The translations under genes were made by a program, and so were the position numbers. DNA of 64,000 nt from positions 2,261,405 through 2,325,404 of the forward strand of contig OZ220495.1 of assembly GCA_965116225.1 (NCBI GenBank), in the 5' to 3' direction. Source of the stretch: Dehalococcoidia bacterium (lineage in GTDB: Bacteria; Chloroflexota; Dehalococcoidia; Bin125). The notes under the pieces are model-generated. The model saw only the letters and a program-made list of their open reading frames with translations, was not told where the DNA came from and ran no database searches. Positions 9,057 through 20,707 of this stretch are shown here, one piece after another; position 1 is the first letter of the stretch; each line of letters begins with the position of its first letter.

Positions 9057-9241
9057 CGTGCAGTCCGGCGTACCAACCGCTCCCGGTGACGGGGCGAGCT
9101 ACTCCTCGCCGCGGCTGTGTCCATGCCCGTTCATATCCTCGAGCAGGGTCCAATCGTTCGCGTCGGCGGCCCAGTCCAGCAGCGCTTCGAGTTGATCGGC
9201 GAGCGTCGCAACGCGCTTGCGGTCGTAGAGCAACGGATCCA

Positions 9242-10330
9242 TCAGTACCTTAGAGCCGCCCAGCCGCCCAGCACCAGGCTTGCGTCAATGCCGATTGTCT
9301 CATGGAATCCGATCATCCCGATCGCGCTGACAGCAAGGTAGCCCTGTAGCTCTGGAAGGTCCAGGATCGAAAACAGCAGATCGCCTTCGAGGATTCTGAG
9401 GGATAAACGTGATAATCCAGCCAACCGTGCCCAGCTCGATGTCGTGGCCTGAGTCTTCGATTGCCGCTTGCGTTGGCTTGACGAGTGCCGAGTTCAGCGT
9501 AAGCACGGCGGCACCTCGCCTTGAGCCAACCGGTCGGCGATCATCGTCTCGACTTGGTCGAGATTGGATAGCCCGGCCTGGTCGACTCGCAGGCGCTCGA
9601 CCGTTCCGCTGTAGGCGGTCTCCGCATGATCGCAGCGTTTTTCGAGACCCACATGGGCGGCTTCGTAAGTAACGCAGATCAAGGTCCCGGTCAAGCCGGC
9701 GTCAGCGAACGCCCGCCCCGCCATGTCGCCGGTAGCCGGATCGTCGAGACCGACGTGTTTGAGTTGCCATAGTCTGCGCCCTCCGAAGCGCCTGAATTGA
9801 AGGTGGCGATCTGTACGCCCGCCTCTCGAGCCGCGACGATAGTTGGTCCCACCACGTCTGGAGCAGCCAATGTCGTCCCAATCACCGCCGCGCCATCGGC
9901 GACGCACTTGTTGATCAGCTCGGCCTGCGCTGTGGGCGTTGCGCCCGACTCAACCCGCAGGTTCATCCTGAAGTCCGAAGCGGCCTCCTGTGCTGCGATA
10001 TGCGCGAGCCTCCAGAACTGCAAGTCCCCCGGCGTTCCATGATCGATCAGACAGACTAGGTCGCCGTCCAGGAAGAGTCCGGCCCGATGTTCACAGCACC
10101 GAACTATGCAGCCAGTCGCCTGGCTTTGCGTTTGCCGGCACGAACCGGGTTGCCGCCAGCAGCCGCTCGCCCCAGGCACCGCCCGCCTCGCGCTGTTGCA
10201 GCGCGACTTCGACATCGCCGTCGGCTTGGCGCTGCGCCACAATGCGCACTTCGCCGCTACCGATGTGATTCGCCAGCACCACGCTCAGCAGGAGTCCGAT
10301 CCCTACGCCGGACAGCAACATGCCCGCCAT
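9242..10330 (-). pseudogene. Decayed periplasmic sugar-binding protein (PBP1/RbsB-like ABC SBP) broken by several frameshifts
   Basis: Signal-peptide ORF (10091..10330, MAGMLLSGVGIGLLLSVVLA) followed in other frames by SBP-like segments (LIDHGTPGDLQFW...AELINKCVADGAAVIG...VQIATFNSGAS; ...LRVDQAG...; ...ELQGYLAVSAI...). These are split over at least four reading frames, and no permease or ATPase genes lie adjacent. Confidence 0.5.
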
Positions 10331-10414
10331 CCAGATCCATCTTGGTCATCGTATGTGTCTCATTGCGGTGCGCAACCCTTTTTTAGCTCAAGCGGCTCAG
10401 GTAGAGGTAATGTA

Positions 10415-11790: not shown

Positions 11791-13785
11791 CTAGCTGTGA
11801 CCGTTGTGAGAGTGATGACTGTGTTCATGTCCATCGTGCTCATCGTGGTTCATGTCGTGCGCGCAGTGATCGGGCGTGGGCAGGTCGAGCGCGGGATTAT
11901 GGCTGAAGAACCCCGCCGGTCGCAGCTTGAATCCACTGCGATGCACCGGCGCCACCGGCCAGTCCTCGGACGTGACGATGTGGTTCATCCCGACCGTGTA
12001 CCAGAGCACGACATCGGCGTCCGCGATCTCGCGGTCGGCCGATACCCAAGACGGGATGCCCTGTCCCGGCTCGCTCTGGTTCGGGTAATTGCCAGCCGGG
12101 TACATCTGCGTCGCGTCAAAGGGGGTCACCCAGAGCTGCTTGCGGGCGAACCCGGCGCGCCCGTAAACGGCCGATTCCCGACCGGCCATCATCGAGACCG
12201 TCTCGCCTGGTATCAGCAGATACGCCGGCGCATGCCCCACGTGGTTGACCTTGTTGGTGTTCGCAACGCGCCAGTGACGTGCCGAGGCCGCGTTGACCAC
12301 GCGCTCGCCATCCGACTCGTTGAGCAACGGCTTGGCGATGGCGGTGAAGGCGTTGTGGTAGGGATTTTGCGGGCCCGCCGGCAACGGCGCGGTATCGACT
12401 TCGTAGACCGTGTTCGTGCCGCCATCGACCTCCATGTCTAGGCGGAAGCAGAAGAAATGCTGGTGGATCGGCCCCGCTAGTTGCGGCGCGATCATGTGCC
12501 GCGTGATCTGCGGGTCGTCCGGCTCGGCGGCGATCGTCTGCACGATGCCGGTCGCCTTGATTTCTTGCTCCCACGATCCGTCTGGGTAGAAGTACCAGTA
12601 GAAGCCGTAGTCGTAGTTGCCGACTGTGGCGATCGCCGAAACGACCAGCCGCCGCATGCGGCGCACCTCCGAAACCGGGACATCGCCCTCGAGCCGCGTG
12701 TGCTTCCAGTTGATTCCGAAATCCTCTTCGTGGATACAGATGGCGTTCTTGATCGTCCGCGAGCCGCCGAACTCATTGGTCACGTGGCCGTCCATATAGA
12801 CGATCTCGCCCAGGCAATCGCAGCCAAGCTCAAGCGAATTAGTCAGCCGCCCCAGCCCGCCGACTTCGCCCGAGTCGAACGCGTTCTTGAAGTACTGCGT
12901 CGGCGACGAGTCGCCGTATGGCACGACCATCTCGGCCATCGAGGCGCGATAGCAGATCGACCGCAACTCGCCGTCGTCGTTGTAGGCGATCTGGTGCAGC
13001 ACCAGACCCTCGCGTGGGTGCAGAGAGACCCGCATCTGCCACTTCTGCCAGCAGAGCAGGTGCCCATCCAGCGTGAACGAGACGCCGTCCGGCTGGATGA
13101 TGTCCAGCGCTTTGAGATCCTCGCGCGGCGTGATGTCGTTGTATTGATAATCGAGCGCCGTTTCGGGCGCGGCGGGACCAGGTTCGTCGATCAATTCCAG
13201 GACGCGGTTCTCAGTCAGATCGACGACCGCCACGACATACTCGATCGGACGGCCGTAGCCGTTCGACTGCTCGGAGTCTCGCAGATAGGAGATTGCCTTA
13301 AGCGTGCGGTACTCCCGCTCCCATGCGGTCCCGAAGTTGCCGCCCGGCCACGGGTCGACCTGGATCAGCTCAATCTGCGCGTCGCTGAAGCCGCGCGCTT
13401 TCATCGCCGCCAACCAGCGCGAGTCCGTCTTGACCGCCTGCACGGCCCGACCGAACTCCTCCATCAGCGGAAACGGCTGATGTCCCTCCAGCGCGGTCCA
13501 ACGCGTCACCGACTCTGCGCCGAGATCGACGACGCACTCCACTGCCTCGCCGCTGGAGACATCGAGCAGCATGACAAACGCCCGCCGCTCAATCGAGTCG
13601 CCGTTAGAGTACGCCCGCACGGTGTCCTTTGCAGGTTCGTCTAGCGCAACCAGCGGGAATCGCCAGCTGTCACGAGGTTGATGCGCTCCCGCAATGCGAG
13701 AAGCCGCCGCAATCTCCTCAGCCGTCAACGGGTCGAGCGGATGGGAAACGCCAACCGGCGCAGCGGGTCGAGTCTCAGTAACCAT
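11791..13785 (-). CDS. Copper-containing (TPQ) primary amine oxidase with C-terminal His-rich tail
   Basis: TVGNYDYGFYW (precursor Tyr of TPQ in the N-Y-D/E-Y consensus), His ligands, 665 aa. Start ATG at 13785 (MVTETRPAAP). C-terminus ...HDMNHDEHDGHEHSHHSHNGHS. Confidence 0.85.
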   Translation of the reverse strand: MVTETRPAAPVGVSHPLDPLTAEEIAAASRIAGAHQPRDSWRFPLVALDEPAKDTVRAYSNGDSIERRAFVMLLDVSSGEAVECVVDLGAESVTRWTALEGHQPFPLMEEFGRAVQAVKTDSRWLAAMKARGFSDAQIELIQVDPWPGGNFGTAWEREYRTLKAISYLRDSEQSNGYGRPIEYVVAVVDLTENRVLELIDEPGPAAPETALDYQYNDITPREDLKALDIIQPDGVSFTLDGHLLCWQKWQMRVSLHPREGLVLHQIAYNDDGELRSICYRASMAEMVVPYGDSSPTQYFKNAFDSGEVGGLGRLTNSLELGCDCLGEIVYMDGHVTNEFGGSRTIKNAICIHEEDFGINWKHTRLEGDVPVSEVRRMRRLVVSAIATVGNYDYGFYWYFYPDGSWEQEIKATGIVQTIAAEPDDPQITRHMIAPQLAGPIHQHFFCFRLDMEVDGGTNTVYEVDTAPLPAGPQNPYHNAFTAIAKPLLNESDGERVVNAASARHWRVANTNKVNHVGHAPAYLLIPGETVSMMAGRESAVYGRAGFARKQLWVTPFDATQMYPAGNYPNQSEPGQGIPSWVSADREIADADVVLWYTVGMNHIVTSEDWPVAPVHRSGFKLRPAGFFSHNPALDLPTPDHCAHDMNHDEHDGHEHSHHSHNGHS

Positions 13786-13924
13786 GGCGGATGCTCTCCA
13801 AATTCGATTTGGTGCGACATGAAGTGACAACAGCTTAACCGAGCGTAATCCACACCGCGCGACTTCGCTTGTGAGACGGGTCAAGATTGGCTAGTATAAG
13901 ACGAGTGACTGAGAGGATAATCTA

Positions 13925-14539
13925 ATGAAAAGCGATGACCAAAACAACCTCGCAGTGAGAGTGATCTCCGAGAAGATCGCGCAACTGGAGCCGGACATCG
14001 CGTCCCAGGTCTCAGAAGCACGCCAAAGCCTGGCTGAGATGGTTCGGCTCCTGGAAGAGCAGCGAACGCTCCAAGGGGCGATTGAATCGTTGCAAGGAAC
14101 CAGGCAAGAGCCGGATATCGATGAGCGATGGGCGATGAGAAGCCGCGATCCTCTATTTCGCGCTCAGCGTGCGCTACGAGAGATCGACATGATCGAGCGT
14201 GACAGGGACCCCGAGCGTCGCCGCCCAGTCGCCCCTTCGGATCTGACTGTGAGAGGAAGACCGGGTGGCCAAAGCGGTGAAGAGCGCGCTGAAAAGCTAG
14301 ACATTGTCGCCTTCGCGCAAGAGTTCGCAACATCAAATGGCAACCTGGCGCGCCTGCCGGACTTGGCGGCGCTCATCGTCAAGCGTGACCCAAGCAGATA
14401 TCGGAATGTCGCCACCGCCCAAGCCTCGTTGTACTACCACCTCGGTAAGAGCGAGCTGTTCGAGAAGGTTCGCGCCGGCACGTTTCGCCTCATCGATCCA
14501 GCCGGCGCTGCCACAGAAAGAAATGGAGAAGAACGATGA
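13925..14539 (+). CDS. Hypothetical protein: coiled-coil N-terminus plus C-terminal Mrr_N-like winged-helix segment
   Basis: GAGAGGA RBS 7 nt before the ATG. Lower GC (about 55%) than flanks. C-terminus ...AQASLYYHLGKSELFEKVRAGTFRLID resembles the Mrr_N wHTH wing. Confidence 0.55.
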   Translation: MKSDDQNNLAVRVISEKIAQLEPDIASQVSEARQSLAEMVRLLEEQRTLQGAIESLQGTRQEPDIDERWAMRSRDPLFRAQRALREIDMIERDRDPERRRPVAPSDLTVRGRPGGQSGEERAEKLDIVAFAQEFATSNGNLARLPDLAALIVKRDPSRYRNVATAQASLYYHLGKSELFEKVRAGTFRLIDPAGAATERNGEER

Positions 14540-14582
14540 CTTAGGCCAATGCAGGAAGCAACGATCCCGAAGAAAGGAGCGA

Positions 14583-15026
14583 GTGTGGAAGAACGACTGT
14601 CCTCTACCGCTCGCCAAGATACGCGCAATCGCGCAGGAACGGAGGTACAGGGTGACAGAGCACCCATTCGACGATCAGGAACCGGAATCGCCCTTGAACC
14701 AGGTACGCGCAGCTCTAGATCGACTTGCGTCACAGTCGTTGGCGGCTAGTGACGCGCGACGATCTGTGTGCGAGCAATTGCAGGCGGCGATCGATGCCCA
14801 GAACTGGCACCGCGCGCATCGCGCCGCGCGAATGCTCGCCCGCGGTGATGCCCTCAGTCTCGTTCTATGGCTGGGGGCGCAAGAGCATATTGAGCGGCTG
14901 CGAGCGGCAGACGTCGAACGTTGTCCCTCGCATGATCCACTGGATGCTCAAGCGGCGATTCAAGAAGCAGAGCGGCTGCTCTCGCAGTCGCCCGACGACC
15001 GAAACTCGAAGGAGGAACCATCGTGA
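14583..15026 (+). CDS. Hypothetical protein (GTG start chosen; ORF is open from 14304 but would overlap upstream gene)
   Basis: ORF in frame 0. Motif KIRAIAQERRYRVTEHPFDD. The stop overlaps the next start (GTGA), indicating translational coupling. Confidence 0.4.
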   Translation: MWKNDCPLPLAKIRAIAQERRYRVTEHPFDDQEPESPLNQVRAALDRLASQSLAASDARRSVCEQLQAAIDAQNWHRAHRAARMLARGDALSLVLWLGAQEHIERLRAADVERCPSHDPLDAQAAIQEAERLLSQSPDDRNSKEEPS

Positions 15027-15346
15027 AACTGACCGAAGCTGAGCGCATGCTCCCATACGTGCTGTGTGAGCTGAAAATCAGAGGCCCAGAGCTGCGGTTC
15101 AGGCAGCTGGCAAACGCAGTTCGGCCGCGTATGACGCACCTTCTAACGGAGACCGACTTGCGTCCATACGACAGTGGCCAAATTCCTTGGGAAGTCAAGC
15201 TGAGCAGGTTCAAAGATGAGCTGCGCAAGCGCAGGCTGATTGATCCGCGCACTTCCCGGGGCGTGTATCGAATCACGCGCAAGGGATCGCAGGAGGTTGA
15301 AGATTGGCTCGCTGCGCTGACTGCTGCTACGGGACCGGATGCGTAA
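15023..15346 (+). CDS. Small Mrr_N-like winged-helix protein
   Basis: 107 aa, ...RLIDPRTSRGVYRITRKGSQ closely resembles the C-terminal wing of the Mrr_N wHTH domain. Start overlaps the upstream stop. Confidence 0.5.
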   Translation: MKLTEAERMLPYVLCELKIRGPELRFRQLANAVRPRMTHLLTETDLRPYDSGQIPWEVKLSRFKDELRKRRLIDPRTSRGVYRITRKGSQEVEDWLAALTAATGPDA

Positions 15347-15351
15347 CGACA

Positions 15352-15384
15352 CTTGCGGGCACCGCCATTGGCGGTGCCCGCAAG
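15352..15384 (+). terminator. Intrinsic-terminator-like hairpin (15-bp perfect stem cttgcgggcaccgcc / ggcggtgcccgcaag, 3-nt loop)
   Basis: Perfect inverted repeat beginning 6 nt after the TAA stop at 15346. No U-tract, which is common in high-GC genomes. Confidence 0.55.
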
Positions 15385-15938
15385 CTGTGTGAGATCGTTT
15401 GAGCGCTCAGATCGTTGATACTGTTTCACCCCCAGGCCGGAACACCTCTTTGGGCGATGGCCAGTTGGTTAGCGGTCAGAGCGGACGTGACTCGAACCGT
15501 GGCGGACGGCTATCCCTCGCAGATCAGCTGAGCCTGCCCTTCGTCGAACCCTATTCGCTCACCTGTCGCGCAGGGCTGCCACCTCCAGTCTCTCTGCTCC
15601 TGTAGGCGGGTGAGGTGGTTTGCGTTCAGGATGCCGGATTGGATCAGCAGGATTGCGGTATCTGCGTTTTCGACCGACATCGCCGATAACCAGCTCGTGC
15701 TGGCGCTGCTGGCATCGAAGTTGTTGAGCGCCTGCGTACCAACCGCCATTTGTTCTGGAGCCTGCCGCTTCCCCCGTTCCCGGCGGGCGCAGTCTACGCC
15801 CTGTCCGCGGAGTGGCCGGCGTGGGGTAGTCTCACTACCGTCGAACGAACGCAAGCAGGCGCGGGGAAATTCCCCGCGCCTGCTTGCTGCTGCGCTGGCT
15901 GTTGCCAGCGCTTGTCGGTCGACACGGCAGGTGAAGCG

Positions 15939-17243
15939 CTAGACGGCCTCGATGATCGTCGAGATGCCCATGCCAGCGCCGATGCACTGGGTGGCGAGAC
16001 CGTACTGGCTGCCGCTGCGCTTGAGCTCGCGCGCGACGGTGGTGACCAGTCGGGTGCCGGTGGCGCCCAGCGGGTGGCCGATGGCCAGCGAACCGCCGTT
16101 GACGTTCACCTTGTCCATCGAAATGCCCAGCTCCTGCACCGAGGGGATGACCTGCGCGGCGAAGGCCTCGTTGAACTCGACGCGGTCGATCTGCGCGGCG
16201 TCGATGCCGGCGTGCGCCAGCGCTTTGCGTGTTGCAGGTATCGGGCCCAGACCCATAATCTGCGGCTTGACGCCGCCGACGCCAAAGCCCGCGATGCGCG
16301 CCAGCGGTTCAAGGCCGAGCTCGTCCGCCTTGCGCTCGCTCATCAGCAGCGCCGCGGTGAAGCCGTCGTTGGTCGGGCAGCTGTTACCGGCCGTGATGCG
16401 AATTTCGCTCTGCGTGTGCGAAACGGTGCCGCGGACGGTGCGCAGAGCGCTCAACCCCTCGAAGTTCGTGCCTGGGCGGAAGCCCTCATCGACTTCGACA
16501 ACGCGCGTGTCGCCGCGCTCGTCGAGCAGCAAGTTGCCTTCCTCATCGAAGACGGGCATGTCGACCTCGATCGGCACGATCTCGCCCTGGTAGAAGCCGT
16601 TGGCCATCGCCTCGCCGTACTTGCGGTGCGATTCGACCGCGAACTCGTCCAAGGTCTCGCGCGAAATGTCGTACATCTCGGCTACGTTCTGCGCCGTCTG
16701 CAGCATCGAGCAGACCGGTGACGAGTCGAGAATCTCGTCCGGGATCGGCACGCTGAAGTAGTCGTTGTGGTTGGGCGCGAGGTTGCGCTGCGACTCGGTC
16801 ATGCTGTGGCGGTCCTGGTTGAACTCGGTAATCCGGTTCGGTTCCGCGCCGCCGCCGCCGCCAAGCTGGCGACCCATCCGCTCGACGCCGAGCGCGATGC
16901 CGACGTCAATCGCGCCGACCATAATCTCCTGCGCCACGCGATGCATCGTCTCCATCGAGGAACCGCACTGGCGGTTCGAGTCGAACGTGCAGACCGACTC
17001 GGGCAGCCCGGCCAGTCGCACGATGTGGTTGGCGCCGATACCGGCCAGCTCCGCCACGCCGCCGACGCAGCCCATGCCGACATCCTCGATGTCGTGCGGA
17101 GATAGCTGCGGGTAGCGGCCGAGCAGTTCCTGGAGCACTTGGACGGCGATCGTGTCCAGCCGGGTCGCCGTGAACGCGCCGCGCCCGCCGCGCGTGAAGG
17201 CGGAACGTGCGCCGTCGACGATGACGACATTCTGCATTTCCAT
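15939..17243 (-). CDS. Thiolase-family acetyl-CoA C-acyltransferase
   Basis: 434 aa, N-terminal VVIVDGARSAFTRGGRGAF and active-site Cys region NRQCGSSMET typical of thiolases. Confidence 0.8.
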   Translation of the reverse strand: MEMQNVVIVDGARSAFTRGGRGAFTATRLDTIAVQVLQELLGRYPQLSPHDIEDVGMGCVGGVAELAGIGANHIVRLAGLPESVCTFDSNRQCGSSMETMHRVAQEIMVGAIDVGIALGVERMGRQLGGGGGAEPNRITEFNQDRHSMTESQRNLAPNHNDYFSVPIPDEILDSSPVCSMLQTAQNVAEMYDISRETLDEFAVESHRKYGEAMANGFYQGEIVPIEVDMPVFDEEGNLLLDERGDTRVVEVDEGFRPGTNFEGLSALRTVRGTVSHTQSEIRITAGNSCPTNDGFTAALLMSERKADELGLEPLARIAGFGVGGVKPQIMGLGPIPATRKALAHAGIDAAQIDRVEFNEAFAAQVIPSVQELGISMDKVNVNGGSLAIGHPLGATGTRLVTTVARELKRSGSQYGLATQCIGAGMGISTIIEAV

Positions 17244-17382: not shown

Positions 17383-20300
17383 CTAGAGGTCGAGTGTGCC
17401 TGACGCGGCAGGTTGCGATTTGGGCGGTTTCCGCTCTGCGTCGGACGGACTGGGCAGCTCAGCCGCCGTCCACAGTTCCGATTCGAGCACCGCATCCAGC
17501 AGCGCCCGTCCCGTCGGCTCGAGGTCGATGGTGCGCTCGATCACCCAGAGCAATTCCAACAGCTCTTCGCTGAACTCCCATCGCTCTGGCCGAATGTCGT
17601 CGAGCGGCGACGATTTCTTGCCTTTGCGATCCCGCATCCGATAGCCCAGCCATGATCGCACGATCTGTAACCCCGACACCGAGTATTCGTACACCGCTCG
17701 CGGCACTGGTCGGAATTCGCCCTCGCCCACATGCAGCGTCAAGGTCTGCTCGTCGTAGTGGAACGAGTTTGGATATTCCGACTGCGGCACCGCCACCGCG
17801 CAGCGGGCGTCACCCTGCGGAACCGTGCCGTCGTCCTGCGGACCGGCGAACCGCTCTCCGTACGTATGCAGATGGATCAGTTGTCGCCCGTGCTCGGCGA
17901 CGCGCATGAACAACTCCCGATCCTTGCTGATCGGCAAGCGCGGCGGCGGCAACTCGAGCTCGTCCCAGAATCGCTCGACGTAGGATGGTTGGGCGAGGAT
18001 GCCATAAGCGTAGGCGAAGAGGTCTTCCGGCCCCGTGTCGAGTATGTCGAGAATGCCGGCAGTCACATTGGCTTGAGTTCCCGCCGCGTCTCGGTAGAGG
18101 GGGATGACATCCTTGGCACCCCGGCCGCAGAAGTGATCGAGATCCGGAACAGCGCTCGCTGCGATCGCCGCAGGCCCCTTGCCCAGCACTTTTGTCAGTA
18201 GCGAAGTCATATAGACCTGATTTGAGCTATATGCAACCCATAGTGATGGTCCGGGTCGATCAATAAGCCTTGTGTCTGCAATAATGTACTGTCTGTCCCA
18301 TGAGCGTAGCGTGTACTGCACTATATGGGGCATTGGTTCAGGTTTCTTGACATCATATATTGATACGAGCCTGGCTCCCTGTTTATCCAAGGGCATCGGC
18401 TCGTCATCGACCTTACGACCAGTCGATCGACTCACAAATAGCATTTCACGCTGACTGTTCTCTGATTTTGTCAGAGCTCGCCAGCGCGCGCTAAGTATAT
18501 TAGTCGTCTCTCCAATTGGCCAAGTTCTACCGACCTTGACGCCGGACTGTTGCCAGGGGAATACGTCGTTGACCTCCGGCCAGTCGAAGTAAGCGCCTGT
18601 GCCGATCGGGTAGAACGGATCGGTCCAGGCGTCTGAGCAAGGTTGCCAATCGAGATCGGCAAGCGTTCGAATCTCGTTAAGCTGCGCGAGCTTGGCTTCG
18701 GCGCTGCCGCTGAGCTTAACCTTGCTGACGACAGCCGGGCGCTCGGAGTCTGCGTCGCGGTATCGCACGCCGATCGCAATCGCCACGGGAGAGCGGATGG
18801 CGAACACGTTGTCCGTCTTGCGAGCGCCGAGATTGTCGCCCTCCAGATCGATGATCCGCAGTTCGTCGAACGTCTGGCGCATCATCTGCCGCATGCCCGC
18901 AAATGCCGGTCCGCGCAGATATGAGGAGGCGGTAATGAAGGTGACGATACCTCGGTAGTCCGGCGATTCGAACACTTTCCAAAGCGCCCAGCGCCAGAAG
19001 TACACGTATGTGTTGTATAGATTCTTCAACTGGCCGCCTTCGCCCGCTTTGACGACCGGCTCGGTAAAGTCGCGCAGAATTCCAGCCTGTTCAGGCCCGA
19101 TGTCGCCGTGTACGACCCAACCGCCAGGCCCTTCCTTACCCGTTTCGGGTTCGCCCATTTTGCCGCGGTCGTAGGGCGGATTGCCGATGCAGACAGTGAT
19201 GTTGCGAGCGCGTTTCATCTCCTGCGCCGCTTTGCGATCGGCGGTTATAGCCTGTTGCAGCAGCGAAGCGTGAAACTCTTCCTCTGCCGTAGGCGATGCC
19301 AATGTATCGGCCAGATAGACTCGCGCCGACTGCCCGGTCGCTCCAACTTCGCGCAATCGCTGCGTGATCCGGAGTCGCGCGACGGCGTAGGGTCCCACCA
19401 ACAACTCGAACGCTTCCAGGCGCTCGGCCAAGCTGCTCATACGCTCTGCAACCGCGCCGGGTCCATAGCGTTGCGAGACCGTCGTTGCCGCTTGATCGAT
19501 GATGGCGAGCGGGTAGGTGCCGGTCCCCACGGCAGGGTCGAGGATGCGCACCGATGAATCCGCGAAGCCCAGTGGCCTGTCGAACCGGGTGCGAAGCAGT
19601 TCGTCGGCCAACCGCACCTGGCATTCCACTACCTCGATGGGCGTGAAATAGACGCCGCGATCCTTACGCAGGGCCGGATCATAGGCGGCGAGAAAGATCT
19701 CGTAGAAGTACAGCCAATAGTCAGTGGCGAGTTCCGTCTGCGGTTCCGCTATCGCGCCGATCACACGCTCCAACAGCGAAATGGGCATCAGCAGTTCGTC
19801 GCGGACGAGTGGGAGTTCCAGCAGCTGCAGCGCCGAAGCCAGCAGCGCATGTTCGCCTTCCAGTTTGGGAAGCGCCGCGTGGAGATCAAGCGACTCAGCA
19901 CCTTCGAACTGCGCCAGCAGCAGCGCATAGGTCAATGTCTGCGCATATGCGTCAGCGAATTGCGCGTCATCCGCCTCAGGGAAGAGGATGCCGCGCCATT
20001 CCGTCGCAAGTTCGCGCAGCGGTTTATTCCCCCGTCCCAGTGCTGATTGAACCTCGTCCCGCAGGATGCGGGCCAGCGGCGCGATGAATTCCGCGATGCC
20101 CTTCGGATCGCTAGGTGTCTTGGGCTGCCAGTTGACGAAGTCCGCCAATAGCGCCCGTAACTCGCTCAGCGAGTCAGGCCGTAAGGCGTTGGGACCGTCG
20201 CGAATATCCGTAGCGATTCGGACTCGAGCTTTTCGCTCACCCGTCCGATATAATGTCCACTCGGAGCCATCGGTATAGATCAGATTGGGCAACGCCGTAA

Positions 20301-20610
20301 AGCGTTTGAATTGTTCCAGGTTACTCTTCTTAAAACTCTCGGGTCGCGCGCCAATGTGCGGCGCCTTGAGTTCGATGTGACCGGTCAGTAGTCCGTCGAC
20401 GATCACGCCGATGTCGGGGCGACCATTCACATCGTCGTCGCGGACTTCGCTACGCCACGCGACTGTTGCGTTGACAAGCGGGCCAAACCGGCTGAGGAGA
20501 TCACCGACAAGTGGTTTGAGTTGGTCTTCTTCCTGCGCTCCGTGCAGGTTTGAGAATTTCTCCACGCACTCGTTGGCGAACTGCGAGGCGAGCTCTTTGA
20601 AATTTTGCAT
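17383..20610 (-). CDS. Single-polypeptide Type IIL/IIG restriction-modification enzyme (MmeI-like: N-terminal PD-ExK nuclease, gamma-class N6-adenine methyltransferase, C-terminal TRD)
   Basis: N-terminal RPDIGVIVDGLLTGHIELK (PD...ExK). Central DPAVGTGTY (motif I) and CIGNPPYDRG (motif IV, NPPY). About 1075 aa. Start taken at MQNFKE (ATG 20610). Confidence 0.65.
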   Translation of the reverse strand: MQNFKELASQFANECVEKFSNLHGAQEEDQLKPLVGDLLSRFGPLVNATVAWRSEVRDDDVNGRPDIGVIVDGLLTGHIELKAPHIGARPESFKKSNLEQFKRFTALPNLIYTDGSEWTLYRTGERKARVRIATDIRDGPNALRPDSLSELRALLADFVNWQPKTPSDPKGIAEFIAPLARILRDEVQSALGRGNKPLRELATEWRGILFPEADDAQFADAYAQTLTYALLLAQFEGAESLDLHAALPKLEGEHALLASALQLLELPLVRDELLMPISLLERVIGAIAEPQTELATDYWLYFYEIFLAAYDPALRKDRGVYFTPIEVVECQVRLADELLRTRFDRPLGFADSSVRILDPAVGTGTYPLAIIDQAATTVSQRYGPGAVAERMSSLAERLEAFELLVGPYAVARLRITQRLREVGATGQSARVYLADTLASPTAEEEFHASLLQQAITADRKAAQEMKRARNITVCIGNPPYDRGKMGEPETGKEGPGGWVVHGDIGPEQAGILRDFTEPVVKAGEGGQLKNLYNTYVYFWRWALWKVFESPDYRGIVTFITASSYLRGPAFAGMRQMMRQTFDELRIIDLEGDNLGARKTDNVFAIRSPVAIAIGVRYRDADSERPAVVSKVKLSGSAEAKLAQLNEIRTLADLDWQPCSDAWTDPFYPIGTGAYFDWPEVNDVFPWQQSGVKVGRTWPIGETTNILSARWRALTKSENSQREMLFVSRSTGRKVDDEPMPLDKQGARLVSIYDVKKPEPMPHIVQYTLRSWDRQYIIADTRLIDRPGPSLWVAYSSNQVYMTSLLTKVLGKGPAAIAASAVPDLDHFCGRGAKDVIPLYRDAAGTQANVTAGILDILDTGPEDLFAYAYGILAQPSYVERFWDELELPPPRLPISKDRELFMRVAEHGRQLIHLHTYGERFAGPQDDGTVPQGDARCAVAVPQSEYPNSFHYDEQTLTLHVGEGEFRPVPRAVYEYSVSGLQIVRSWLGYRMRDRKGKKSSPLDDIRPERWEFSEELLELLWVIERTIDLEPTGRALLDAVLESELWTAAELPSPSDAERKPPKSQPAASGTLDL

Positions 20611-20707
20611 TGGTAAGAGAAGGGACGCGCCGACTGGTATTGCAAACTGAGCCGGACTCCGCACGGAGCCCGGCTCAGCTTATGGCGCCTACCGATTTGT
20701 CGGAGGG

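Follow-up and report, generated by a model that had tools for sequence, protein, structure and literature searches.

Winged helices, including the HARE-HTH and Mrr-associated types, are established or proposed sensors of DNA modification in restriction systems (PMC11037411). The Mrr type IV enzymes join such a domain, Mrr_N, to a PD-(D/E)XK nuclease domain, Mrr_cat, while HARE-HTH domains occur in the RNA polymerase delta subunit, RpoE, and as N-terminal modules of restriction enzymes. Silencers of the Rok/H-NS type are laid out as an oligomerisation domain, a linker and a DNA-binding domain, which in Rok is a winged helix, and the distribution of Rok is itself patchy and reflects horizontal acquisition (PMC6936261). 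The exchange of cargo at defence hotspots flanked by core genes is a further relevant concept (PMC10250203, PMC10121019). Here we describe a three-gene module, P1-P2-P3, from a 64,000-nucleotide stretch of Dehalococcoidia DNA (the window) that resembles each of these in part. The P1, P2 and P3 families are extremely rare, that of P1 comprising 25 clusters in 1.84 billion representatives. They are confined to one Dehalococcoidia clade, always in a slot with a copper amine oxidase (CuAO) gene on one side and a thiolase gene on the other; all the genomes compared are MAGs. We regard the module as a rare candidate anti-foreign-DNA system. Our preferred reading, which is tentative, is that it is an exchangeable, nuclease-free unit for DNA recognition or silencing, carried as cargo of a defence hotspot. 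The module comes from the phylum Chloroflexota (Dehalococcoidia), in which the lack of cultured hosts has left immune repertoires almost unexplored.

The three genes are co-directional on the forward strand, each has a ribosome-binding site, and the start of P3 overlaps the stop of P2 (Table 1); the ORFs, the ribosome-binding site of P1 and the overlap are as the original prediction had them. An in-frame ATG at 14523 may serve as an alternative start for P2. Promoters of both P1 and CuAO presumably lie within the intergenic region from which these genes diverge, where no sigma-70-like site was called. A GC content of 55%, against about 67% in the flanks, had been claimed for the module; this was overstated, the measured value for 13925-15384 being 59.7%, compared with a window mean of 63.4% and flanks of 63.6% and 65.1%. 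Formal testing did bear out an atypical composition: the GC content falls at the 4th percentile among equal-sized windows, the tetranucleotide distance lies in the top 2.9% of windows, and the GC3 values of P1, P2 and P3 are 0.634, 0.628 and 0.639 versus 0.74-0.91 in ten native genes.

Table 1. Features of the module and its surroundings (positions in the window).
Feature	Positions	Strand	Remarks
CuAO gene, left anchor of the slot	11791-13785	-	Pfam Cu_amine_oxid, E=1.4e-145
P1/CuAO divergent intergenic region	13786-13924		GC 49.6%; holds the P1 Shine-Dalgarno sequence
Shine-Dalgarno sequence of P1	13911-13917	+	GAGAGGA
P1	13925-14539	+	204 aa, ATG start
Shine-Dalgarno sequence of P2	14573-14579	+	AAAGGAG
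P2	14583-15026	+	147 aa, GTG start
Shine-Dalgarno sequence of P3	15010-15015	+	AGGAGG
P3	15023-15346	+	107 aa, GTG start
Overlap of P2 stop and P3 start	15023-15026	+	GTGA
Module hairpin	15352-15384	+	perfect, GC-rich, 5 nt past the P3 stop
Locus-specific DNA	15385-15850		466 bp that separate the module hairpin from the second one
Second perfect hairpin	15851-15887	-	18-nt arms; lies about 50 nt past the thiolase stop
Thiolase gene, right anchor of the slot	15939-17243	-	Pfam Thiolase_N and Thiolase_C
Type IIG restriction-modification (RM) gene	17383-20664	-	in the adjacent slot

The flanks of the slot are conserved and its contents are not. Sister genomes with P1 and without it alike have a CuAO of 82-85% identity, and the thiolase is 91-94% identical across close loci. 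The module is present in about half of the close relatives; in nine sister genomes that share its flanks, P1, P2 and P3 are all missing. In the five P1-less genomes scanned the slot is occupied by HNH_2 (L007 and L012), GmrSD (L011 and L015) or EcoRII with Dcm (L013), and the slot of L010 holds a 254-aa ORF that matches the HNH_2 gene of L007 in size and position. PADLOC recognises the three occupants tested, namely the L007 HNH protein (E about 1e-101), the L011 GmrSD and the L013 EcoRII and Dcm. In L093 the module and an HNH gene lie side by side. As P1-less sisters carry HNH, GmrSD or EcoRII/Dcm genes at this position, the slot is a defence hotspot, and guilt by location places the module among its cargo. 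The defence-rich neighbourhood that had been predicted is therefore upheld on stronger evidence, the same slot holding restriction genes in sister genomes. An RM enzyme expected nearby was found as the Type IIG gene of the adjacent slot, which elsewhere holds Uma2 (PADLOC candidate PDC-S03); an HNH nuclease was also expected nearby, and the queries used detected no HNH_2-type gene in the window.

The slot shares conserved flanks and exchangeable cargo with the core defence hotspots of Pseudomonas aeruginosa and E. coli (PMC10250203, PMC10121019), and its cargo likewise consists of RM, type IV and HNH genes together with genes of no known family. It differs from them in phylum, in being seen only in MAGs, in its size of just 1.8-3.8 kb and in its lack of mobile-element hallmarks. 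Ordinary solute-binding-protein genes, a further difference, are also found in the slot, and its cargo is therefore not all defensive. It is the location of the module that points to an anti-mobile-element role. Whatever the function of the module, the slot is a clear case, from beyond the model Proteobacteria, of a compact defence hotspot with core genes on either side.

Divergent pairs of a regulator and its target gene are a classical arrangement, and at each of the ten distinct loci that carry the module and have an upstream flank (among them the window, L001, L003, L004, L006, L087, L089, L092 and L093) CuAO lies immediately upstream of P1 and divergent from it. This invariable orientation also fits a local regulator. 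P1, together with P2 and P3, could thus be a divergent winged-helix regulator of the CuAO/aminotransferase operon, and the recognition helix of P1 is nearly invariant among close relatives. However, the nine sister genomes without P1, P2 and P3 keep the operon (63-83% identity). A conserved operator in the P1/CuAO intergenic region was rejected: only about 25 nt beside the CuAO ATG are conserved across the P1-bearing loci, no motif exceeded chance (the best 8-mer, found in six of nine loci, was reached by 48% of shuffles) and the window leader has no inverted repeat. The involvement of three proteins, the swapping of partners and a divergence decoupled from that of the target operon would all be unusual for such a regulator, and we consider this explanation unlikely.

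Divergence within the module far exceeds that of its surroundings. Between close loci with flanks of 79-95% identity, P1 is 44-48%, P3 35-37% and P2 33% identical, and among hosts whose CuAO is 82-86% identical P1 identity is 26-62%. This contrast has the appearance of the cargo exchange described for hotspots. The locus shows that orphan cargo of a hotspot can last as very ancient allelic lineages, P1 identity being 23-62% overall, in hosts that are 67-95% identical in the flanking genes. The partners of P1 also vary, in ways that suggest a functional link between the genes. The P1-P2-P3 order recurs in L087 and L093, the P3 frame of the latter being decayed to a pseudogene with P1 and P2 intact, whereas L001 has P2 and P3 joined as a single ORF, a fusion present in an independent JGI assembly as well (P0030). 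In L004 and L088, P1 is paired instead with a conserved 210-aa protein with four cysteines (the 4-Cys protein). Neither the fusion nor the 4-Cys partner has a PADLOC match. By eye the latter displays a CxxC...QxxxY...CxxC arrangement reminiscent of Cas4/RecB; this candidate found no support in Pfam at E<=10, PADLOC or PDB profiles, and no nuclease signature was detected. An acidic 'DLPFE' tail goes together with the 4-Cys partner; the window has no SSB gene with whose tail it could be compared.

P1 and P2 have no match in Pfam, NCBIfam or PHROGs, and the module matches no known defence model in PADLOC-DB v2.0.0, in which P1 finds only DruA (E=0.0073 over 42 residues). The original prediction of an accessory module unlike any described system agrees with these searches, and the homologues are modular rather than scattered. 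In its AF2 model P1 consists of a long helix (residues 2-57), corresponding to the predicted coiled-coil N terminus, a helical hairpin (65-94), an Arg-rich linker that is predicted to be disordered (98-123; pLDDT below 50) and a winged helix (127-189), behind which comes an acidic tail of short length. A C-terminal Mrr_N-like domain had been proposed for P1. The winged helix was confirmed and its Mrr_N identity was rejected, since none of 23 P1 family members matches Mrr_N at E<=1 and hhalign gives a probability of only 0.7% for the P1 winged helix against the P3 family. For the latter reason we regard the 'RLID' string common to P1 and P3 as a coincidence; the two domains have no detectable relation. 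The recognition helix and wing of P1 are 69-77% conserved, and in the closest P1 pair, to which the dN/dS comparison is limited because synonymous sites are saturated in the others, pN is 0.225 versus a pS of 0.711. Taken together, these values indicate that the genes are real.

The P1 winged helix is weakly HARE-HTH/forkhead-like (Foldseek E >= 0.05). Its top Foldseek match is the Staphylococcus aureus delta subunit, 2krc is also listed, and HARE-HTH (PF05066) is the only recurrent Pfam match in the family (2 of 23 members, sub-threshold). All of these matches fall below threshold. Profiles built from P1, P3 and the 4-Cys protein found nothing meaningful among PDB sequences. As in the delta subunit, the winged helix of P1 is followed by an acidic tail, which is net negative in 20 of 23 members and mostly 7-49 residues long, with one outlier of 116 residues. 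Unlike HARE-HTH proteins, P1 has its winged helix behind a coiled coil and not at the N terminus, and its tail is short.

The predicted order of P1, in which a helical domain comes first and a flexible basic linker leads to the winged helix at the C terminus, is that of Rok (PMC6936261), whose DNA-binding domain (5zuz) is among the Foldseek matches. In the window P1 the N-terminal domain is acidic (charge -6.5) and both the linker (+1.8) and the winged helix (+2.9) are basic. The module also encodes small partner proteins, as silencers have Hha, sRok or H-NST as modulators. It is conceivable, therefore, that P1 is a resident Rok/H-NS-like nucleoid protein or xenogeneic silencer acting genome-wide, with P2 as an Hha-like partner and with no role in phage defence. 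Several observations argue against this. P1 has no sequence homology to any known silencer, Rok, H-NS, Lsr2 and MvaT included, and it occurs only at a hotspot, in roughly half of the members of one clade. The low GC3 speaks against a highly expressed core protein, the charge asymmetry is only a partial trend in the family (N-terminal domain negative in 16, linker positive in 17 and winged helix positive in 13 of 23 members), and the P1 alleles of close hosts are extremely divergent. We judge such a resident silencer to be quite improbable; a mere local regulator or silencer would in any case be of ordinary interest.

For P3, a resemblance to Mrr_N was seen, as predicted. P3 matches Pfam Mrr_N (PF14338) over positions 10-83 of 87 with E=2.4e-5 and 24.8 bits, below the cutoff of 29.5. 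Mrr_N was the best match in all five P3-family sequences scanned, a set that leaves out L089_g2; with 32.0 bits the L001 fusion passes the cutoff, and the L003 and L087 orthologues score 20.6 and 15.8. By sequence, P3 would be a stand-alone winged helix of the Mrr_N type; it is basic, with a pI of 9.9. Thus P1 and P3 both have folds of the nucleic-acid-binding kind. P2 was predicted to have no recognisable domain, and Pfam, PADLOC, PHROGs and NCBIfam are indeed empty for it. Its AF2 single-sequence model is all-helical, with six helices (pLDDT 65), and a fold search of this model found no credible neighbour; P2 is homologous to L087 g2 (36% identity), to L093 g95 (31%) and to the fused ORF of L001 in its N-terminal half (33%). 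The module thus resembles the Mrr type IV enzymes in its near full-length Mrr_N match and in its location among restriction genes. In contrast to these enzymes it lacks a catalytic domain: no PD-(D/E)XK/Mrr_cat nuclease domain was found in P1, P2 or P3 with Pfam, PADLOC or NCBIfam, no nuclease gene of the Mrr type lies between 13786 and 15938, and the partner to which P3 is coupled, or joined in one ORF in L001, is an orphan helical protein and not a nuclease. No other enzymatic or recognisable effector is present in the module.

Two other matches of P3 are weak. In PADLOC-DB v2.0.0 it finds Cmr1 (E=0.015), and its match to YjhX_toxin/TopAI covers 36 of 85 positions (18.4 bits against a Pfam cutoff of 27, E=0.0022; NCBIfam E=0.019). 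The latter would be in keeping with a toxin-antitoxin or addiction-type selfish unit kept by post-segregational killing, as would small, tightly coupled and patchily distributed genes that encode DNA-binding, antitoxin-like proteins. However, the YjhX match is confined to the P3 of the window, other family members giving none even at E<=10; there is no YjhQ-like gene and no toxin fold was recognised. Three genes in a conserved order, with no copy on a plasmid or phage, are not what such a unit would predict, and the decay of P3 in L093 beside intact P1 and P2 is hard to square with an essential balance. We therefore consider an addiction unit the least probable of the explanations discussed here.

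On our preferred reading of an exchangeable DNA-recognition or silencing unit, P1 would self-associate through its long N-terminal helix or the helical hairpin and would contact DNA through the conserved C-terminal winged helix on its flexible basic linker. P2, as a helical adaptor, may act as a single unit with P3, either adding another head for DNA recognition or modulating P1. The three proteins together might recognise foreign or differently modified DNA and then coat, bridge or occlude it, in the manner of type IV restriction sensor heads or of Rok/H-NS-type silencers with their small partners. In the sister variant, the 4-Cys protein takes the place of P2-P3, possibly as an effector. A bolder version, which we hold to be doubtful, is that P1 and its exchangeable partners constitute an unrecognised nuclease-free anti-mobile-element system of Chloroflexota, in which a self-assembling, hotspot-borne winged-helix protein recognises invading or differently modified DNA and silences it or occludes it directly, or hands it to a swappable effector. 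If the module does act against foreign DNA, it would be a defence strategy without a recognisable enzyme, built from winged helices of the restriction-sensor type; if the coating interpretation is correct, immunity would be achieved by covering DNA rather than by cleaving it, and would be maintained as deeply diverged alleles that close hosts exchange with one another.

A recently inserted low-GC island, as originally proposed, is not upheld. Every relative adjoins CuAO in the same slot, in lineages whose CuAO is 68-86% identical, and the module is therefore not a recent insertion. There is no integrase, transposase or repeat flanking it and no tRNA within 30 kb. P1 and P3 were absent from viral contigs, tblastn found no copy of the module in phages or plasmids, and a metagenome pattern scan with the P1 alignment gave no confirmed match. 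These results also bear on whether the module is a decaying regulatory remnant of a mobile element, or a set of non-functional, fast-drifting ORFs. Its atypical codon composition, the very fast divergence, the P3 pseudogene of L093 and the 466 bp of unexplained locus-specific DNA beside it would agree with decay. Against this stand, besides the missing mobile-element traces, intact frames, a conserved gene order, a winged-helix motif strongly kept in at least nine lineages and a pN well below pS; we consider a remnant or drifting ORFs very improbable. The 466-bp segment has no blastn or tblastx similarity to related loci and no Rfam match, and its ORFs have no NCBIfam match; it is possibly what is left of earlier cargo of the slot. 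Rfam searches at gathering and permissive thresholds gave two distant tRNAs and chance-level matches only.

The hairpin beyond this segment is probably the thiolase terminator and the right edge of the variable slot. At the end of the module, the perfect hairpin that had been predicted to close the unit was confirmed as a stem, formally with 16-nt arms separated by 1 nt and effectively with 15 bp and a 3-nt loop. The 71-nt segment that contains it has a folding energy of -40.8 kcal/mol (z = -5.4), and none of 200 shuffles was as stable. No T-tract follows the stem and the consensus terminator scan made no call, so the predicted terminator is best described as putative, factor-independent and lacking a T-tract. 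GC-rich, non-homologous hairpins occur at the equivalent position in L001, L003, L087 and L089, and those of L001, L003 and L089 do have A/T tracts.

Genomic context is the decisive evidence for the module formed by P1, P2 and P3. Wherever flanking DNA exists (related loci L001, L003, L004, L006, L087, L089-L092 and L093), P1 holds a constant position, divergent from the copper amine oxidase (CuAO) gene and upstream of a convergent thiolase gene. Nine sister genomes (L007-L013, L015 and L016) keep these flanks, with CuAO 63-83% identical, and tblastn and local profile HMMs detected none of P1, P2 or P3 in them. The invariant divergent arrangement would fit a regulator dedicated to the CuAO operon; however, these nine genomes bear the operon without the module, and no operator is common to the P1/CuAO intergenic regions. 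In the module-less genomes the slot between CuAO and thiolase measures 1.8-3.8 kb. Solute-binding-protein genes occupy it in the Pfam-scanned loci and are the apparent sole cargo in L008, L009 and L016 (the last judged by ORF size only). Pfam identified an HNH_2 endonuclease in the slot of L007 and L012, and L010 probably holds another, judging by a 254-aa ORF at the matching position; a GmrSD type IV enzyme is present in L011 and L015, and EcoRII with a C5 methylase in L013. PADLOC classes as defence proteins those occupants that were tested: L007 HNH (E about 1e-101), L011 GmrSD, and L013 EcoRII plus Dcm. In L093 the module and an HNH gene are adjacent. Conserved flanks with exchangeable cargo characterize published core defence hotspots (PMC10250203, PMC10121019), and this slot fits that pattern. 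The interval from the thiolase gene to an amidohydrolase gene forms a second slot of variable content; besides the tabulated occupants, L093 has two unknown genes there, and in L009 and L016 the slot is nearly empty.

The module itself consists of three closely packed ORFs on the + strand (13925-15346). They had been predicted to be coupled, and the ORFs, their upstream ribosome-binding-type sequences and a GTGA overlap between the P2 stop and the P3 start are all present. The "perfect terminator" of the original prediction is a perfect and stable hairpin (enclosing 71-nt segment, -40.8 kcal/mol, z = -5.4) and a putative terminator; no T-run follows it, and a consensus terminator scan gave no call there. 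The 466 bp between this hairpin and a second one (from 15385) are similar to none of the related loci and match no RNA or protein family. Related loci have a single bidirectional hairpin, versus two in the window.

Coordinates of the module, its variants and neighbouring features
Feature	Locus	Position	Strand	Remarks
P1	window	13925-14539	+	ATG start, 204 aa; GAGAGGA 5' at 13911-13917
P2	window	14583-15026	+	GTG start, 147 aa; AAAGGAG 5' at 14573-14579; in-frame ATG at 14523 a possible alternative start
P3	window	15023-15346	+	GTG start, 107 aa; AGGAGG 5' at 15010-15015
Perfect hairpin	window	15352-15384		begins 5 bases past P3 stop
Second perfect hairpin	window	15851-15887		18-nt arms; just beyond thiolase stop
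Type IIG RM enzyme	window	17383-20664	-	second slot
Uma2 (PADLOC candidate PDC-S03)	L002/L003	12452-13003		second slot
Uma2 (PADLOC candidate PDC-S03)	L004	16025-16579		second slot
4-Cys protein	L004	10952-11584		46% identity to L088
4-Cys protein	L088	1234-1872		
P3-like frame	L093	about 9400-9890		in-frame stop
Peripla_BP_4 pseudogene	window	9164-10336	-	solute-binding protein, frameshifted
CuAO tandem duplication	L004	5896-9851		

The gene content of the module varies. Type A (P1-P2-P3) is found in the window, in L087, where stop and start abut as TAAATG, and in L093, where P1 and P2 are intact and the P3-like frame is interrupted (…LLAND*TEYDW…); this broken frame and the adjacent HNH gene suggest that the module is decaying in the L093 lineage. 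P2 and P3 form one 315-aa ORF in L001, identical in an independent JGI assembly (P0030), and P2 is missing from L003 and L089. In type B (L004, L088), P1 is paired with a conserved protein of about 210 aa with two CxxC pairs, which replaces P2 and P3. The gene for this 4-Cys protein was left uncalled in the L004 annotation, and Pfam, PADLOC and PDB profiles detected no family for it; a Cas4/RecB-like identity, considered from a CPRC...QxxxY...CxxC pattern seen by eye, found no profile support. Type-B P1 proteins have a longer acidic tail. The tail ends in DLPFE in the L004 P1 and six other family members (C-termini listed for P0004, P0005, P0007, P0011, P0014, P0017 and P0020), and this ending is missing from the P1s with a confirmed P3 partner (window, L001, L003, L087 and L089). 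It resembles the C-terminal tips of SSB (DDDIPF/DDLPF); the window contains no SSB gene for comparison.

Between the window and L001/L003/L004, flank proteins are 79-95% identical; the corresponding values are 44-48% for P1, 35-37% for P3 and 33% for P2. Among hosts with CuAO uniformly 82-86% identical, P1 identity spans 26% to 62%; divergence of the module is therefore decoupled from that of its hosts, as would be expected if old allelic lineages were exchanged via the conserved flanks. The module genes are under constraint all the same: the closest P1 pair has a pN of 0.225 and a pS of 0.711.

P1 and P3 had both been described as Mrr_N-like, and this was upheld for P3 only. Mrr_N is the best match in 5/5 P3-family sequences scanned; window P3 itself (model positions 10-83/87, E=2.4e-5) scores 24.8 bits, below the gathering score of 29.5 bits, and the L001 orthologue exceeds it at 32.0 bits. 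A further nuclease-free Mrr_N architecture occurs in P0033-P0035 (proteins of ~160 aa), with an N-terminus judged by eye to be ribbon-helix-helix-like; one of them is named "restriction system protein" by one source. A weak Pfam match of P3 to YjhX_toxin (18.4 bits) is the single point in favour of a toxin-antitoxin pair, a weak candidate, and it was not reproduced among the other P3 members scanned. For P1, no significant match was found in Pfam, PADLOC, PHROGs or NCBIfam, and Mrr_N was found in 0/23 family members. HARE-HTH is the sole Pfam family found more than once (2/23, best E=0.0055). The AlphaFold2 model of P1 (five-sequence alignment, pLDDT 75.5) shows a long helix at residues 2-57 and a helical hairpin at 65-94; a disordered, Arg-rich linker (98-123) then leads to a winged helix of H-beta-H-H-beta-beta order at the C-terminus (127-189). 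Searched against the PDB with Foldseek, it matches best a HARE-HTH domain, that of the delta subunit of S. aureus RNA polymerase (8x6g_E; E=0.05, TM 0.61 on target); forkhead domains come next, and Rok and DpnI winged helices rank lower. As profile-profile comparison of this winged helix with the P3 family gave a probability of 0.7%, the RLID motif common to P1 and P3 is a coincidence and their winged helices represent separate families. Within P1, identity is 69-77% in the recognition helix and wing and 16-55% in the remainder. P2 is, as originally stated, without a recognizable domain: the same four databases gave no match, and a single-sequence model (six helices, pLDDT 65) had no credible structural neighbour.

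Our best-supported reading, which we hold tentatively, is that the module forms part of the defence-hotspot cargo as an accessory and exchangeable operon, coding for non-enzymatic proteins of DNA-binding type; its function is read from location and fold, the hosts are uncultured, and all mechanistic steps are what we infer. By its predicted layout of a helical N-domain, a flexible, basic linker and a winged helix, P1 would be a self-associating DNA binder; such a layout defines the architecture of Rok/H-NS-type bridgers (PMC6936261). That architecture would also fit a genome-wide nucleoid protein, for which, however, the distribution is patchy, GC3 is low and the charge pattern is inconsistent across the family. 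In the hotspot-cargo reading, P2 and P3 may act as one unit, given their fusion in L001. Winged helices of the P1 and P3 kinds serve as sensors of DNA or its modification on restriction enzymes (PMC11037411). From the P1 layout, the P2-P3 fusion and these sensor-type domains, we propose that foreign or differently modified DNA may be recognized and then coated or occluded, with a swappable partner. The module is undescribed, made of known kinds of parts.

The module is also rare. Among 5.8 billion clusters, a word-indexed search returned four P1 relatives and no relative of P3. When 1.84 billion representatives were searched exhaustively by profile for P1, 25 proteins had E<=1e-3, of which about 20 are full-length; the P3 profile search gave five close members and three marginal 160-aa Mrr_N proteins. 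By its neighbouring CuAO, the window groups with MAGs of uncultured Dehalococcoidia (Chloroflexota). A rival origin as a mobile-element remnant lacks any hallmark of such an element, and viral contigs, phages and plasmids yielded no homologue. The GC contrast had been put at 55% against 67%, which overstated it: the module region has 59.7% GC versus a window mean of 63.4% (flanks, 63.6% and 65.1%), the 4th percentile among equal-sized windows. The anomaly is clearer at the codon level, with GC3 of 0.634 (P1), 0.628 (P2) and 0.639 (P3) against 0.74-0.91 in ten native genes (0.686 in the Type IIG RM gene), and the region ranks in the top 2.9% by tetranucleotide distance from the window. Composition is thus atypical, if less dramatically than claimed. 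The original observation largely holds once its GC figures and its domain assignment for P1 are corrected, and its interpretation is supported in part: an accessory, defence-associated and undescribed module is present, but it is a long-standing hotspot resident and not a fresh island. Elsewhere in the window, the Peripla_BP_4 pseudogene separates penicillin amidase and aminotransferase genes that abut directly in L003 and L004. CuAO, single in the window, is tandemly duplicated in L004, L009, L011, L013, L015 and L016, the second copy being about 59-63% identical.
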